From: Candidatus Kaiserbacteria bacterium RIFCSPHIGHO2_01_FULL_53_29
Lineage (GTDB): Bacteria > Patescibacteriota > Minisyncoccia > Phycocordibacterales > UBA2100
Reading direction: 5' to 3'
DNA length: 64,000 nucleotides
Assembly: GCA_001781125.1 (NCBI GenBank)
Contig: MFKT01000029.1
Coordinates: forward strand, 4,040 to 68,039
Shown in pieces: positions 290 through 64,000 of this stretch. Positions within the stretch are counted from its first letter, which is position 1, and each line of letters opens with the position of its first letter. The position numbers and the translations under genes are program-made. The notes under the pieces are model-generated. The model did not search any database and was not told the origin of the DNA. It saw only the letters and a program-made list of their open reading frames with translations.

Positions 290-1141
290 CTAGGTAATAT
301 TGTCAAGTCCAAAAACACGCCTCGAGTTAGCCATAATTCGGGTAGCGACTTTCTCAAAGTCTTCGCCGCGGATGTCGGCGATCTTTTGAACGATGAGGGG
401 GATGTAGGCGGATTCGTTGCGCTTGCCGCGGTGGGGCTCGGGAGTCACATACGGCGCGTCGGTCTCGGAAAGCAACATGTCGAGCGGCGTGTTTCTGATG
501 GCTTCGTCGTAATCGTGGGTAAACGTAATGACGCCGGTGAATGAGAGAGTGAATCCGAAATCCAAGAATTTCTTTGCCGTATCCCAATCCCCCGCAAAAA
601 AGTGCACGTCGCCTTTTACTTTCGCGTGCACTTTGAGAATTTCGAGCGCATCATCGTATGCGCTTGCCTCGCTGGAGCCTTGCGGCAGCGGGTTTCTGAT
701 GTGCAACATCAACGGCTTACCGAGTTTGTTGGCGAGTTCAATCTGTTCAATAAATGCTTTCGATTGCACGTCTTTGGTGCTCTCTTCAACGCGGTAGTAA
801 TCGAGCCCGCATTCCCCGATCGCAATGACACGCGGCGATGCTCCAAGTGTTTCGTACGCGGCGAAGTCGAAGACTTCGCCGCGGGAGGTAAACTCTTTGC
901 CCCCTTCCCCGAGTTCTTTAACGTCGTGGTAAGACTTTGCGGTGTGAACGGGATGCAAGCCGATGGTCGCAAACACATTGTCGTACTTTTCTGCGAGCTC
1001 GACCGCCGCCCTCGATGTATCGAGCTGTGTCCCCACGACATTCATTCCCACTTCTGCCTCTTTGGCACGCACAATACTTGCTTCGCGGTCGTCGTTGTAC
1101 GCGACAAAGTTTACATGCGTATGTGCGTCGAAATATTTCAT
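290..1141 (-). CDS. TatD family metal-dependent hydrolase (DNase)
   Basis: ORF 290..1171; TatD-like motifs (FDAHTHVNF...HxD...SETDAPY); start placed at internal ATG (MKYF). Confidence 0.8.
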   Translation of the reverse strand: MKYFDAHTHVNFVAYNDDREASIVRAKEAEVGMNVVGTQLDTSRAAVELAEKYDNVFATIGLHPVHTAKSYHDVKELGEGGKEFTSRGEVFDFAAYETLGASPRVIAIGECGLDYYRVEESTKDVQSKAFIEQIELANKLGKPLMLHIRNPLPQGSSEASAYDDALEILKVHAKVKGDVHFFAGDWDTAKKFLDFGFTLSFTGVITFTHDYDEAIRNTPLDMLLSETDAPYVTPEPHRGKRNESAYIPLIVQKIADIRGEDFEKVATRIMANSRRVFGLDNIT

Positions 1142-1271
1142 CCCATTAGAAGTCCGTCGCTGGTTGTTCATACATCTGTCTTAAACATTACGTTTCGTTT
1201 GCTTTGCTGACTCAATAAGCTTCGCAGAAAAATTTGGATTAAATCTTTCTGCCCAGGACTTCTAACGGGAT

Positions 1272-13770: not shown

Positions 13771-13829
13771 CGCGAAAGTGTACCACTGCCGCGTAGAGCA
13801 TTTTGGAAATGCTCTGCGTGATTCTCCTG

Positions 13830-13920
13830 ATTCCATTGGATGGAATGATAATCTACGTCGAATCCTTTGGAAGGATTCGACGTGATTTCCTAAATCCCAT
13901 TGGATGGGATTTAGGAAATC
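13830..13920. repeat. array of three perfect hairpins sharing a TGG loop (stems 7, 8 and 17 bp)
   Basis: ATTCCAT-tgg-ATGGAAT (13830..13846); GAATCCTT-tgg-AAGGATTC (13860..13878); GATTTCCTAAATCCCAT-tgg-ATGGGATTTAGGAAATC (13884..13920), directly 3' of argS. Confidence 0.6.
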
Positions 13921-15577
13921 ACATTCGCTCTGGAGCCGGAATGCCCAAAATCCAGAGACCGTTTTTCAATGTTTTTCGCACCGCATCCACGAGCGCGACT
14001 CTGTGGGCTGCTTCGGGAGTACCATCGAGAATATGTACCTGCGCGTACCAGCTGTTGAACGCGCTCGCGAATTCAAGAAGGTAGTTCGTTAGCAGATGCG
14101 GTTCGTTGTGTGATGATGCATATTCGACCGCTTCCGGGAAGCGGTGCAAAAACCGAGTAAGATCATCCGAGGCTCTATTGCTACCTACCTTAGAGGCGAC
14201 GCCTCTAAGGTTAGCTTGCTCGACGACCGCGCAGGCACGGGCGTGCGCATACTGCAGGTACGGACCAGAATCACCTTCGAGCGAGAGCGCGCGGTCGCGA
14301 TCAAAAATGATGTCTTTCCCCGATGCTTGCTTTAATATCTGATATTTGATCGCCGCTACCGCAACCTGCTGCGCGAGTACCTCGTGATCCTCCGCCCTGC
14401 TTTCCGCCCCCCGAACCTTCGCCGCTTCGGTAAGATCTACGAGCAATGATTCTCCTGTAATAACATTGCCGGTGCGCGAAGACATCTTGCCTTCAGCAAA
14501 ACGCATCATCCCGTGAGAAACATGCTGGATTTTAGGGGCAATATCCGGCAACACATCTTCCATCGCAGCTTTAACGACAGCAAAATAATCAGCCTGCTCG
14601 TGCGCAGTCACGGTAATTGAAGTATCGAAGCCCCAAGTTTCCGCTTTCAACTCGGCAAGCCCAAGATCTTTTGCCTCGTACGTCGGCAGTCCCTTTGATG
14701 TAACGAACACGCGTGTGTGCAACTCCTTCTTCTCACCCTTGTACACAATCGCCCCGTCGCTTTTTTCAAACACTCCCGGATTCTTCTCAACGAGCTTCAG
14801 GCCGCGCGGAGCCGTCTCGCTCTCAAAAAAGTAATGATCGAATTTTGTACCCAACATTTTGTACAACTCCTCAAAATGATCGAGCGATGCTTTCCGGCCT
14901 GCTGCGTAGACGGCATTTATTTCCGCGTCAGACTTGTCGTAGACTTTTGTGTTTATGGCATCTACCTCTGCTTTGGCAGCAATATCGTTTTCATATGCCT
15001 GTGCTCCCGTCGCATAAGCTTTTCCAAGCTGCGCGGCATCATTCGGGTCAACGCCAAGCTTCATTACGCCCCAAATCGCTTTTGCCACATGCGGCCCGAT
15101 GTCACCCTGATAATTCGCACGCCTCACTTCCGCGCCGGAGAATTGCAAAAGCCGCGAGATGGATTCTCCTATCGCATTGCTCATCAAATGGCCGATGTGG
15201 AATTCCTTGAATGGGTTGGGGTCGGTGTACTCAACCATTATTTTCTTCCTCGCGAGATTTTTGTTAGCCCCCCACATATCCTCCGTACGCGCTTCCTCTA
15301 CCGCCTCGGCGAGCGCAGCGGATGCGAGATAAAAATTGATGAAGCCCGGCCCAGCGATCTCAATTTTCGCAATACCTTTAATGTCTCCAAGTGCGGCAAC
15401 GATTTTCTCCGCAAGCATTTTGGGCGCAACACCCGCTTGCTTCGTATACTGCAGTGCAACGCCGGAAGAATAATCTCCATTTTTCAACTCTGCCGGATGT
15501 TCGAGAGAAACATTTACACCATAAACACTCGCCCTCGCGAGTGCTTCCGAAATAGCCTTTTTTAGAGTCTCTGGCAT
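13919..15577 (-). CDS. argS: arginyl-tRNA synthetase
   Basis: class I HIGH (FKEFHIGH), C-terminal DALR anticodon-binding domain ending ...RM. Confidence 0.9.
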   Translation of the reverse strand: MPETLKKAISEALARASVYGVNVSLEHPAELKNGDYSSGVALQYTKQAGVAPKMLAEKIVAALGDIKGIAKIEIAGPGFINFYLASAALAEAVEEARTEDMWGANKNLARKKIMVEYTDPNPFKEFHIGHLMSNAIGESISRLLQFSGAEVRRANYQGDIGPHVAKAIWGVMKLGVDPNDAAQLGKAYATGAQAYENDIAAKAEVDAINTKVYDKSDAEINAVYAAGRKASLDHFEELYKMLGTKFDHYFFESETAPRGLKLVEKNPGVFEKSDGAIVYKGEKKELHTRVFVTSKGLPTYEAKDLGLAELKAETWGFDTSITVTAHEQADYFAVVKAAMEDVLPDIAPKIQHVSHGMMRFAEGKMSSRTGNVITGESLLVDLTEAAKVRGAESRAEDHEVLAQQVAVAAIKYQILKQASGKDIIFDRDRALSLEGDSGPYLQYAHARACAVVEQANLRGVASKVGSNRASDDLTRFLHRFPEAVEYASSHNEPHLLTNYLLEFASAFNSWYAQVHILDGTPEAAHRVALVDAVRKTLKNGLWILGIPAPERM

Positions 15578-27733: not shown

Positions 27734-28108
27734 CTATTTTAATTTTGAACCATTGGGAAGTTGGCGTTCCGGCACAAGAAGAACTACGCCGCTCTCATCG
27801 CTTGCCCCGTTAGAGGCATCGCCTCTAACGGGGCTTGCCGCGAGCAACATCCCCTGGCTTTCTACTCCGCGCAAGCTCCGCGGAGCGAGGTTTACGATGT
27901 AGGGAAGCTGTCTGCCGACTAATTCTTCAGGTTTTTTCCATTGTGCGATGCCGGAAACTATTGTGCGTTGCCCCAACTCTCCAAAATCTACCGTGCATTT
28001 GATGAGTTTGTCGGTCTCGGGCACGAGCTCTGCCGCTACAACAGTCCCCATCCGTATATCGAGCTTCGCAAAATCATCGTATTGAATTTCTGGCATTTGT
28101 TCTCCCAT
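27734..28108 (-). CDS. stand-alone tRNA-binding protein (CsaA/EMAP-II-like OB fold)
   Basis: KLDIRMGTVV...LRGVESQGMLLAA...VVLLVPER...PNGSKL resembles MetRS C-terminal/CsaA domain; contains in-frame palindrome insert. Confidence 0.7.
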   Translation of the reverse strand: MGEQMPEIQYDDFAKLDIRMGTVVAAELVPETDKLIKCTVDFGELGQRTIVSGIAQWKKPEELVGRQLPYIVNLAPRSLRGVESQGMLLAASPVRGDASNGASDESGVVLLVPERQLPNGSKLK

Positions 28109-61694: not shown

Positions 61695-63401
61695 ATGGTG
61701 GGAATGGCTACTCAGTTCAATGAGAAGAAGCAGGATGAGCGACTGCATGACCTGCGCGGGCGCGAGGAAGAGCAGCTCGCTGAAATGCTGTCGGGCAAAT
61801 ACGGCGTCGAGTACGCCGATCTCACATCCAAGGCGATCGACACCGATGCGCTGCGGCTCGTCGAAGAAAAGATCGCGCGTGCAGCGGAAGTGGCAGCCTT
61901 TCACAAGGTCAACAAAAATCTTTTTCTCGCGATGCGCTCCCCCGAGCGCCCCGATGCCGTGCAGGTGATACAGAATCTGGAGCACTTGGGCTACGAGGTG
62001 CGCCGCTTCATCGTATCGCGTGCATCGCTCGATCACGCATGGGATCGCTACCACGACATTTCCTACGCGACCGAGACAGAGGCCGGTATCTTGACGCTCT
62101 CCAACAAAACCATTCAGGAGATGCTGCAAAAATTGAAGAAGCTCGAAGATGTGCGGCTCGAGATCCAATCGCACGCAGGTTCTAAAGACACGCACCGCAT
62201 CTCGCGCGTGCTGGAGATCATCATGGGGGGTGCCTTATCCTTGGGCGCATCCGACATTCACCTGGAGCCCGAGGAAGAGGCCGTGCGCATGCGCTATCGC
62301 CTGGACGGCGTCTTGATAGAGGCCACGATGTTCGATGCTCCGACCTATGCGCTCATCTCGTCGCGCATCAAATTACTCTCCGGTCTCAAACTCAACATAA
62401 AAAGCGCAGCACAAGACGGCCGCTTCTCAATTGTCGTCAACGAAAAAGAGATCGAGATACGCACAAGCGTCCTCCCCGGTGCCTACGCCGAGACGATCGT
62501 CATGCGTGTCTTGGATCCGACGACGATCGCGCTTCCCATGGAAGCGCTCGGCTTCGACAAATACCTCATGGAAATATTCAATAAGGAAATTGCGAAACCC
62601 AACGGCATGATATTGAACACCGGTCCGACGGGCTCCGGGAAGACGACGACTCTCTATGCTTTCTTGCGGCAGGTGCACAATCCGGGAATAAAGATAGTGA
62701 CTATCGAAGACCCGATAGAGTATCACTTGCCGGGTATCGTGCAGACGCAAGTGTCCAAGGACTATTCTTTCGCGCTTGGGCTCCGCTCGACACTGCGCCA
62801 AGACCCGGATGTCATCATGGTCGGCGAGATCCGTGATGCTGAAGTGGCATCAACCGCCGTGCACGCATCGCTCACCGGTCACCTCGTATTCTCGACACTC
62901 CACACCAACGATGCCGCCGGTACTTTCCCCCGCCTTATCGACATGGGCGTGAATGCCGACATCCTGGGCGCGGCGGTCACGGTGGCAATGGCACAACGCC
63001 TCGTGCGCCGCTTATGTCCGCACTGCCGCGTCTCGCAGCCCTTGAGCGCAGAAGATAAAAAACTGATGGAGCCGCTTCTGCGCAACATTCCCCACGCCGA
63101 TGAATTGCCCGCCAATCGCGACACGATGTGGCTACCCAAGGGCTGCGAGAAATGCGGCGGGCTCGGATACAAAGGCCGCATCGCGGTCGTCGAGGTCGTG
63201 CTCATGGATCACGAGATCGAAGATTGTGTACGACACACCTCAAGCGAGCGCGACATTTGGAAAGCGGCGACGCACCAAAAGATCCGGCGCATGGGACAAG
63301 ATGGTATCGTGAAAGTATTGCAGGGCGTGACCTCGCTCGAAGAACTCGGTCGCGTTGTTGACCTACATGACGAAGTCATGTTGGAAACTATCGGTAACTA
63401 A
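61695..63401 (+). CDS. pilB: type IV pilus assembly ATPase PilB (GspE family)
   Basis: Walker A GPTGSGKTT, Asp box, His box, tetracysteine CPHC...CEKC; ORF 61386.. trimmed to Met after tsaE. Confidence 0.85.
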   Translation: MVGMATQFNEKKQDERLHDLRGREEEQLAEMLSGKYGVEYADLTSKAIDTDALRLVEEKIARAAEVAAFHKVNKNLFLAMRSPERPDAVQVIQNLEHLGYEVRRFIVSRASLDHAWDRYHDISYATETEAGILTLSNKTIQEMLQKLKKLEDVRLEIQSHAGSKDTHRISRVLEIIMGGALSLGASDIHLEPEEEAVRMRYRLDGVLIEATMFDAPTYALISSRIKLLSGLKLNIKSAAQDGRFSIVVNEKEIEIRTSVLPGAYAETIVMRVLDPTTIALPMEALGFDKYLMEIFNKEIAKPNGMILNTGPTGSGKTTTLYAFLRQVHNPGIKIVTIEDPIEYHLPGIVQTQVSKDYSFALGLRSTLRQDPDVIMVGEIRDAEVASTAVHASLTGHLVFSTLHTNDAAGTFPRLIDMGVNADILGAAVTVAMAQRLVRRLCPHCRVSQPLSAEDKKLMEPLLRNIPHADELPANRDTMWLPKGCEKCGGLGYKGRIAVVEVVLMDHEIEDCVRHTSSERDIWKAATHQKIRRMGQDGIVKVLQGVTSLEELGRVVDLHDEVMLETIGN

Positions 63402-63902
63402 GACGCTTTCACAGCATAAAACCCGATTATGTGATTGCAAACGAGCCTGCCCCGTTAGAAATATACTCTCACAATTTACGACACATCAATTGCCAAGAAG
63501 AAACATTCTCTGCGCAGTGGAAAAACGCTTCCTAATTTCTTTTGGGGTGCTATCGTTCAAACAGGAAGGGCTTGCCCTTCGAAGTTTTAGCGAAGAAGGG
63601 AGGTGCACACTATCGGGCGATGCTTTTGTAAAAAAGTTGCAACCAGGCCCTGAGGATGGCGGCAGCCGTCCCGCCAAGGCGGGAAACCGCCGCGTCCTTG
63701 GAAAAGTTACCATCGCCCGATACTGTGCATCTCTATGAAAGGCTTGCCGATGCCACGGGTGTGGCGGGCAGAGAAAAAGCGCAAACAGCGCTTTCTGACA
63801 GAGAGTATAGCATATTAGAATGAATTGTCAACCCCATTAGAGAGCTCCGAAGTTTGCCTCTAACGGGGCATGGCCACCTCAATTCGATCCATATTGGATC
63901 CA

Positions 63903-64000
63903 GATGAGCAAAAATATGACAGACAAAGATAAAGAAGCAATAGAAAAGTCCCCCCGCTCCCTCGATCAGGCGCTCCGTCCTGCTGATTGGAAAGAGTATG
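63903..64000 (+). CDS. 5' end of an unidentified gene (MSKNMTDKDKEAIEKSPRSLDQ...), partial at window edge
   Basis: open frame to window end; too short to classify. Confidence 0.25.

Follow-up and report, generated by a model that had tools for sequence, protein, structure and literature searches.

We analysed a 64-kb stretch of DNA (64,000 nucleotides, hereafter the window) from Candidatus Kaiserbacteria bacterium RIFCSPHIGHO2_01_FULL_53_29, in which the gene for a Trbp111/CsaA-like tRNA-binding protein contains a palindrome within its coding sequence (Table 1). The open reading frame (ORF) matches the tRNA_bind family of Pfam, which has an oligonucleotide/oligosaccharide-binding (OB) fold, with an E value of 5e-26. 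Candidatus Kaiserbacteria bacterium RIFCSPLOWO2_12_FULL_53_8 has a hypothetical protein of identical sequence. The palindrome is perfect over 14 + 3 + 14 letters, GCCCCGTTAGAGGC-ATC-GCCTCTAACGGGGC, and occupies positions 27804 to 27834. On the gene strand it reads ASPVRGDASNGAS, flanked by GMLLA and DESGVVLLVPER. The original prediction, an earlier reading of this DNA, had described a 31-bp perfect palindrome inside a CsaA-like gene, and both the palindrome and the 124-amino-acid ORF around it are there, with the encoded peptide and neighboring residues as given. Its coordinates, 27795 to 27825, were 9 bases too low.

Such hairpins are not expected by chance. We counted perfect hairpins by stem length in the window and in first-order Markov shuffles of it. 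The window has 8, 5, and 2 hairpins with stems of at least 12, 13, and 14 bp, respectively, versus 0.03, 0, and 0 in the shuffles. The core of the palindrome, TTAGAGGC-N3-GCCTCTAA (19 nt), occurs twice in the window, at 27810 to 27828 and at 14190 to 14208 in argS, versus 0 expected. The sense-strand hairpin has a folding energy of −31.8 kcal/mol and a z score of −7.3 as a single strand, whether RNA or DNA. Rfam searches of the window at the gathering threshold, and of the palindrome region and positions 63380 to 63920 at an E-value threshold, returned tRNAs only, with no match at the palindrome or in 63380 to 63920.

Comparison with homologs bears on the origin of the palindrome. Among the matches listed, most of the best-scoring homologs have 109 to 110 amino acids, read ...GMLLA-AS-DE... 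at this site, and lack the insert. Among the same matches, the 11 extra residues are confined to a sub-clade comprising the window protein and the homologs P0003 to P0007 and P0010. The ortholog at locus L271 has an empty site, GCC G-CAAG-T GAC GAG, with the target CAAG present once. At the same site, the gene strand of the window reads GCG G-CAAG-(CCCCGTTAGAGGC GAT GCCTCTAACGGGG)-CAAG-C GAT GAG, where the parentheses enclose the element. The 29-bp element and the 4-bp duplication together make 33 bp and therefore add exactly 11 codons. The palindrome extends to 31 bp because the last G and the first C of the duplicated CAAG pair by chance, which lengthens the stem by one pair. Judged from these alignments, the palindrome is evidently an insertion with a target-site duplication in a sub-clade of the orthologs. 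The original prediction was right that a unit had been inserted, but what was inserted is an element of 29 bp, accompanied by a duplication of 4 bp of target, not a unit of 31 bp.

Table 1. Features of the window discussed in the text
Feature	Position	Strand	Description
Trbp111/CsaA-like tRNA-binding protein gene	27734-28108	minus	124 amino acids; PF01588; insert is residues 91-101 (SPVRGDASNGA)
Palindromic element, 29 bp	27805-27833		CCCCGTTAGAGGC-ATC-GCCTCTAACGGGG; perfect terminal inverted repeats of 13 bp on either side of a 3-nt spacer
Left CTTG of 4-bp target-site duplication	27801-27804		gene strand CAAG; single CAAG in the empty-site ortholog L271
Right CTTG of 4-bp target-site duplication	27834-27837		
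Perfect palindrome in argS, 25 bp	14187-14211		ACCTTAGAGGCG-A-CGCCTCTAAGGT; 19-nt core in common, outer arms differ
Family member, 130 bp	1141-1270		TCCCATTAGAAGT...ACTTCTAACGGGA; TTCA duplication at 1137-1140 and 1271-1274
Two family termini, 419 bp apart	63450-63868		CCCCGTTAGAAAT at 63450, GCCTCTAACGGGG ending at 63868; flanks CCTG and CATG

The structural comparison led to the same place. The best solved relatives of the host protein are Trbp111 (1PYB) and the methionyl-tRNA synthetase (MetRS) beta subunit, and alignment to them leaves a gap of exactly 11 residues at the insert. An AlphaFold (AF2) model had a mean predicted local distance difference test (pLDDT) score of 84.7, and the score fell below 50 only at residues 97 to 105, in and just after the insert. 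The model fits a loop grafted onto a β-turn of the OB fold. The original prediction had placed the palindrome in a surface loop that is shorter in typical CsaA/EMAP domains, and had called for an ortholog alignment and a model of that loop; most of the orthologs listed, and 1PYB, indeed lack the 11 residues, and the alignment and the model both agree with it.

To find further copies, as had also been called for, we scanned one genome per species with the 16-nt core TTAGAGGC-N3-GCCTCTAA as the query and obtained at least 118 loci. The 29-bp element CCCCG-TTAGAGGC-NNN-GCCTCTAA-CGGGG was present in at least 49 of them. Among the matches listed, 45 of these copies have exactly the arms of the window copy and 4 have T/A for the outermost C/G pair. 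Their hosts, again among the matches listed and going by record titles, are Kaiser-, Yanofsky-, Sungii-, and Paceibacteria and other Patescibacteria, and also Betaproteobacteria/Burkholderiales, Nitrospirae, Pirellulales, and bins labeled Streptomycetaceae. A scan of metagenomes with the pattern CCCCGTTAGA-N(0-30)-TCTAACGGGG yielded at least 128 elements of 25 to 50 bp. The 29-bp element, with its duplication, recurs in frame in unrelated genes of several phyla.

The copies share their ends. Like the window copy, more than 170 others end in 13-bp perfect terminal inverted repeats (TIRs) made of CCCCGTTAGA and three more bases. Across public genomes and metagenomes, elements with these termini number in the hundreds. 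The first 10 nt are invariant, and the next three vary (AAT, AAG, AGT, GGC, GAC, TAT, and others) but are complementary between the two ends. The interior is arbitrary in sequence and can be as short as 0 to 3 nt, and a 40-bp subfamily has an interior that recurs at 11 loci or more. Longer members with the same ends measure 59 to 153 bp and have 4- to 5-bp duplications, and there is one possible member of 419 bp. Isolated 8-mer half-sites were rejected as evidence, since one was found and that is the chance level; the informative signal is the 10-nt terminus.

A perfect 4-bp direct repeat lies immediately outside the element in 25 of 46 genome-scan copies and 62 of 124 metagenome copies, versus 0.4% expected. 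All of the perfect 4-bp duplications fit YNNR (TAAA/TTTA, TTCA/TGAA, CAAG/CTTG, TCCA, CTCA, TCAA, CGAG, and others). In a few copies the repeat is 5 bp long (for example, TATGA or TGGAA). The combination of terminal inverted repeats and a symmetric target duplicated at constant length is the hallmark of transposases whose cuts are staggered.

Copies inside genes keep the reading frame. ORFs that span the 29-bp element encode UvrA (at two positions, in two genomes), DnaE (at two positions), a ClpB-like ATPase, SecA, PurL, UvrD, and a glycosyltransferase. On metagenome contigs, the proteins encoded by spanning ORFs include MurG, MurD, a CDC48-like ATPase, and ArsA. Two of the three frames of the element are open on either strand, reading P-V-R-G-x-A-S-N-G and P-L-E-A-x-P-L-T-G, and the third contains TAG. 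The coding inserts always read (N/H/D)PVR...SNG(V/A) or (A/T)PLE...LTG. Alignment of solved UvrA structures gave gaps totaling about 12 residues at the PVRGNASNG segment. The element length plus 4 is divisible by 3 in 69 of 114 distinct elements, versus one third expected (p = 3e-9). With elements at contig ends excluded, 29 of 65 frame-preserving elements lie within long ORFs, versus 1 of 45 others (Fisher p = 2e-7). That single element has a 5-bp duplication and is therefore in frame too. Insertion more or less at random, and then purifying selection in mostly coding genomes, would account for this most simply. These many in-frame copies in unrelated genes support the view of the original prediction that a small palindromic element here tolerates in-frame insertion.

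At the orthologous site, the arms of the palindrome have evolved slowly. We compared seven insert-bearing orthologs at the eight arm codons and at the flanking codons. Synonymous third positions differed at 3.8% in the arms versus 51% in the flanking codons. Selection on the protein is no explanation for this conservation, because the synonymous positions are slow too. The pattern points to a constraint on a nucleic acid hairpin or to some homogenizing process. The loop codon varies among the orthologs (GAT, ATC, GAC, CTT, and AAA). In L002 and L003, GGC...GCC has become AGT...GCT, which is one paired change from G-C to A-T and one change that gives a G·U pair in the sense strand. L007 and L272 carry a 17-bp palindrome, CCCCGCC-GAN-GGCGGGG, in which each arm has symmetrically lost 6 nt while the site and its duplication are unchanged.

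The loop itself has turned over in one close pair. L008 (2103 to 2121) and L128 have 2 synonymous differences in 93 and identical arms, but their loops, CTT and AAA, agree at no base. Such a pair hints at a 3-nt loop that is a mutational hotspot or is flipped and remade. Simple inversion of the loop was considered and set aside as an explanation, kept as a possibility: the loops of L001 (ATC) and the window (GAT) are reverse complements, but CTT and AAA are no exact flip of each other.

We suggest that the palindrome is one copy, now fixed, of a non-autonomous and ultra-small element of the MITE kind (miniature transposable elements with inverted repeats), and we regard this as the probable explanation. 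That it is a mobile element with a target duplication, filtered by selection for frame, is well supported. In the proposed mechanism, the unit is defined by its 13-bp perfect TIRs, each of CCCCGTTAGA and three variable bases that are complementary between the ends. It would insert at a 4-bp, rarely 5-bp, staggered cut in a YNNR target, which would then be duplicated, and would be mobilized by a transposase acting in trans and cutting with a 4-bp stagger. In gene-dense genomes, selection would purge copies that are out of frame or introduce stops. The survivors in genes would be frame-preserving copies in tolerant surface loops, in this case the OB-fold β-turn of the Trbp111-like protein. After insertion, the symmetry of the palindrome may be kept by templated correction from arm to arm, together with a constraint at the nucleic acid level.

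Several kinds of family copy stood out in the retrieved loci. Members can be nested, with 29-bp elements inside relatives of 144 bp (L088, 1471 to 1614) and 153 bp (L063, 5608 to 5760). Locus L120 has two abutting members with one 4-bp repeat in common. In proteobacterial and Streptomycetaceae-labeled bins, the 29-bp element lies within GCCGCCGATGAA...TGAACGCCG units, between the two sequences, or within runs of TGATGAG/TGATGAA heptamers (L022, L041, L071, L076, L089, L093, L114, L115, and L125; L043, L045, L074, L075, and L113). These repeats are either preferred targets or carry the element along with them. Neither the exact 29-mer nor the long TIR had a match in viral contigs. The CCCCGTTAGA...TCTAACGGGG arms are present in 22 viral contigs of IMG/VR (L249 to L270). 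In 8 of 16 distinct viral cases, the flanks are inverted (AAAAAC...GTTTT, GGAAGC...GCTTTG), like intrinsic terminators, and are not duplications.

The second copy of the core, in argS, is a different case. The palindrome there has no CCCCG termini and no duplication, and it shares its reading frame with the family core (NLRGVASKV). We rejected it as an insertion because ArgRS orthologs have equal length at this position (KEQGVVAKV). A run of 26 nt is identical to a hairpin in an unrelated metagenome-assembled genome (L020). The argS palindrome looks like a hairpin of the repetitive extragenic palindromic (REP) type, associated with REP-associated tyrosine transposases (RAYTs), and is no bona fide member of the CCCCG family. 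It may have arisen by conversion or by templated mutation. The original prediction was correct that argS has the same core, but membership in an inserted family does not follow.

RAYT-associated hairpins with this core exist elsewhere in Patescibacteria. In Paceibacteria and Yanofskybacteria (L015, L050, L070, and L100), the hairpin (A)CTTAGAGGC-NNN-GCCTCTAAG(T) flanks a Y1_Tnp (PF01797) gene of 217 to 220 amino acids, and the same hairpin occurs twice, in frame, within the gene, reading LRGSASK. The RAYT-like genes of L023, L042, and L245 have the same architecture with different hairpins of their own. The cognate hairpin differs by lineage (TTAGAGGC, ATTGAGGT, TTTGGGTTT, or ACAAGGG). The Y1_Tnp genes lie at 1481 to 2134 in L015, 1053 to 1715 in L050, 5624 to 6343 in L023, 5534 to 6199 in L042, and 889 to 1500 in L245. 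Where comparable, the internal hairpins are at shared positions: both in L015 and L050, with the first position also used in L023 and L042. One of the internal hairpins is near the conserved YIHxNP motif.

Two further places in the window carry family termini. The 130-bp member is directly upstream of the probable TatD start codon at 1141. The ORF call of the window enters this member (1141 to 1171) and gives the TatD protein a false N terminus, MNNQRRTSNG, before the likely start MKYFDAHTH. Likewise, at L004 (1460 to 1571) protein P0007 has a false extension, MIDIDKKADIDSPRPISNGV, before its conserved start. Near the end of the window, CCCCGTTAGA occupies 63450 to 63459 and GCCTCTAACGGGG occupies 63856 to 63868. 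The half-sites that the original prediction had put at 63449 and 63856 are thus real family termini at approximate positions. They are either the ends of one long member or a solo left end and a degenerate 37-bp member (63832 to 63868). The two ends pair in a fold of the whole region (441 nt), with z scores of −6.4 and −7.8 for the two strands. The interior, 63540 to 63730, has a long and very stable fold that includes a hairpin of about 120 nt (63606 to 63725), with no Rfam match at an E value of 1 or less. It may be an undescribed non-coding RNA or cargo of the element.

The window has other perfect hairpins. A 27-bp perfect palindrome, CGCGGCGAAGTC-GAA-GACTTCGCCGCG, lies at 857 to 883 in the TatD-family gene and reads RGEVFDFAA. 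Alignment to solved TatD homologs gave gaps totaling about 11 residues in this stretch. It may be a different, single-copy kind of in-frame palindromic insert. Between the argS stop and the start of a PIF1-like helicase gene (13792 to 13922), there are four consecutive hairpins with stems of 9 to 12, 7, 13, and 19 bp. Their arms are all different, their loop is TGG throughout (CCA on the gene strand), and the last of them overlaps the stop codon of argS. No retrieved locus contained a copy of these arms. We rejected the idea that the other perfect hairpins of the window are dispersed families, because no copies were present in any retrieved locus.

Several findings weigh against a MITE-like element. 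Across about 1.8 Mb of retrieved loci, paired termini up to 5 kb apart enclosed ordinary genes only, with no transposase gene between them. About half of the copies lack a perfect target duplication. The arms are strongly conserved at the orthologous site, unlike what is expected of a dead selfish insert. A duplex of 25 to 29 bp cannot loop its ends together, which makes a hairpin intermediate or an unusual complex plausible. Ends that start with CC(C), combined with a 4- to 5-bp duplication, are most like those of IS1380/piggyBac-type DDE enzymes (ISfinder and the piggyBac literature), and on this pattern of ends and duplication such an enzyme is a candidate. Finally, the inner core TTAGAGGC-N3-GCCTCTAA is shared with the hairpins that flank or interrupt IS200-like (RAYT-like) genes in other Patescibacteria. 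The palindrome could instead be a REP-type hairpin moved or maintained by an IS200-like Y1 transposase (RAYT or TIRYT) acting on single-stranded hairpins, and not a MITE cut by a DDE enzyme. The match of the core to the cognate hairpin of four Y1_Tnp genes, both in the flanks and in frame, agrees with this, as does the common architecture of the three RAYT-like genes with other hairpins. A 29-nt hairpin joins both termini, which would suit an HUH enzyme, and REPs typically have conserved arms and variable loops. Intragenic REPs are documented in uvrA, dnaE, uvrD, and tRNA synthetase genes (PMC3733652). However, the core papers on REPs, REPINs, and IS200/IS605 report no target duplications, whereas half of the copies of this family have variable 4-bp ones, and the RAYT-associated TTAGAGGC hairpins have none. 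None of the 8 RAYT-like genes in the retrieved loci is flanked by CCCCGTTAGA/CCCCG hairpins. A metagenome scan gave 0 matches for two CCCCG copies at RAYT spacing, and the copies are not clustered at any locus. The ends are symmetric, CCCCG...CGGGG, with no GTAG or CGTC tag at one of them, and the window itself has no RAYT-like gene. Because those RAYT-associated hairpins lack duplications, none of the retrieved RAYT-like genes is flanked by CCCCG ends, the copies do not cluster, and the REP and REPIN papers report no duplications, we consider this explanation unlikely.

The conservation of the arms could also mean that the hairpin is selected by the host as an mRNA structure or a protein-binding DNA site, kept for its function whatever its mobility. 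The slow synonymous positions, the compensatory pair with the G·U-compatible change, the free loop, and the high stability of the hairpin agree with such selection, and the viral arms with A/T-tract flanks resemble terminators. But the same sequence, with its duplication, is at unrelated gene positions and in intergenic DNA across phyla, most orthologs lack the hairpin, and Rfam has no match. The hairpin may have been exapted after insertion, but this could not account for the origin of the element, and we give host selection a smaller chance than the REP-type explanation. If a full-length insertion sequence (IS) were excised imprecisely, its footprint would have the observed shape, duplication-TIR-few nucleotides-TIR-duplication, and the spacer does vary. 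Such a footprint is nevertheless improbable: many copies are in essential genes (dnaE, secA, uvrA, and murG), in which insertion of a complete IS would be lethal; identical short interiors are found at many sites, as in the 40-bp subfamily; lengths are biased to frame-preserving sizes; and no full-length parent was seen in the retrieved loci. The remaining idea is a chance palindrome, or a quasi-palindrome made by local template switching, unique to this gene. The window does have other unique perfect hairpins (857 to 883, 13855 to 13922, and others), and the argS palindrome replaces residues at constant length; the argS and TatD palindromes may have this origin. For the element at 27805 to 27833 it is refuted, since shuffles yield no such hairpin, an identical 29-mer is present in dozens of unrelated genomes, and the insert does not come from neighboring DNA. 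A MITE-like element with a target duplication thus remains our preferred explanation.

More tentatively, the CCCCGTTAGA family could be the smallest target-duplicating transposable elements, 25 to 29 bp or about two 13-bp ends, spread over Patescibacteria, Proteobacteria, Nitrospirota, Planctomycetota, and some viral contigs. In this conjecture, the modal length of 3n − 4 would preserve the frame and open essential genes to colonization, mobilization would proceed through a hairpin by an undescribed enzyme or mode, and the conserved arms would reflect active maintenance or exaptation.

The family shows how the reduced, gene-dense genomes of the Candidate Phyla Radiation, and those of other phyla, are colonized by mobile DNA that survives in essential genes through frame preservation. 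Insertions add loops of 7 to 18 residues to proteins such as UvrA, DnaE, SecA, and tRNA-binding proteins. For annotation, they account for recurrent PVR...SNG and PLE...LTG inserts and for false N-terminal extensions such as those of TatD and P0007. For transposon biology, an element of 25 to 29 bp that leaves a clean 4-bp duplication is at odds with the minimum size that MITEs are assumed to have. For evolution, it is a case in which conserved arms, symmetric deletion, and a changing loop can readily be followed in a palindrome that lies within coding sequence. A search of the searchable literature with 12-, 10-, and 9-mers of the family sequence returned only primer coincidences, and searches for MITEs or in-frame insertions in Patescibacteria found nothing on this family.

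Among known systems, IS1380 and piggyBac have ends that start with CC(C), TIRs of about 13 bp, and a 4-bp duplication (4 to 5 bp for IS1380) of a T..A-like target. The piggyBac TIR CCCTAGAAAGATA resembles CCCCGTTAGAAAG, a short likeness. The target of piggyBac is TTAA, unlike the YNNR of this family. Bacterial MITEs include Correia/NEMIS, RUP, ERIC, Nezha, and the Coxiella QMITE, and this family resembles them in its TIRs, target-site duplication, non-coding nature, dispersed copies, and occasional in-frame fusion to host ORFs (review, PMC10969869). It differs in its modal size of 29 bp (the TIRs and 3 nt), a length that does not permit looping, and in having no parent IS in the retrieved loci. 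The MITEs described so far, to our knowledge, measure roughly 50 to 400 bp or more, and a parent IS can be assigned to them.

REPINs, which are REP doublets of about 70 to 110 bp, lie outside genes and are not reported to duplicate their target (Bertels and Rainey 2011, PMC3116915; Nunvar 2010). Like the REPIN/RAYT system, this family consists of short hairpins that last at orthologous sites with conserved stems, and its 16-nt core lies beside Y1 genes elsewhere in Patescibacteria; unlike that system, no RAYT among the retrieved loci is flanked by a CCCCG-type element. Intragenic GTAG- and CGTC-tagged REPs of 20 to 40 bp are present in uvrA, uvrD, dnaE, recBCD, and tRNA synthetase genes; no dedicated transposase is known for the CGTC type, and REP stems tolerate G·T pairs (Di Nocera et al. 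2013, PMC3733652). The present family likewise places short palindromic repeats in uvrA, uvrD, and dnaE. However, those REPs are asymmetric, with a 4-nt tag on one end, often occur as dimers, and have no described duplication (PMC3733652), whereas this family has symmetric CCCCGTTAGA and TCTAACGGGG ends, single units, and a duplicated target.

Rickettsia palindromic elements, to which the original prediction had likened the palindrome, are about 100 to 150 bp, restricted to Rickettsia, and in frame in housekeeping genes, as summarized from Ogata et al. 2002 in PMC3733652 and PMC10969869. The analogy captures behavior: in both cases, in-frame palindromic repeats occupy many unrelated housekeeping genes, the peptide is tolerated, and no transposase is known. 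It does not extend to family membership, the present element being one of 29 bp in Candidatus Kaiserbacteria. In those summaries, the Rickettsia elements have no clear combination of TIR and duplication, whereas this family has 13-bp TIRs and a 4-bp YNNR duplication. It also differs from the Rickettsia elements so summarized in size (25 to 50 bp, up to about 150 bp and possibly about 420 bp), in its presence in several phyla, and in having no sequence similarity to them. In-frame palindromic repeats are therefore already known from Rickettsia palindromic elements and tagged REPs, and no new principle is involved. What is new is the combination of symmetric TIRs, a YNNR duplication, tiny size, and spread over several phyla, in an element that is unusually small and widespread.

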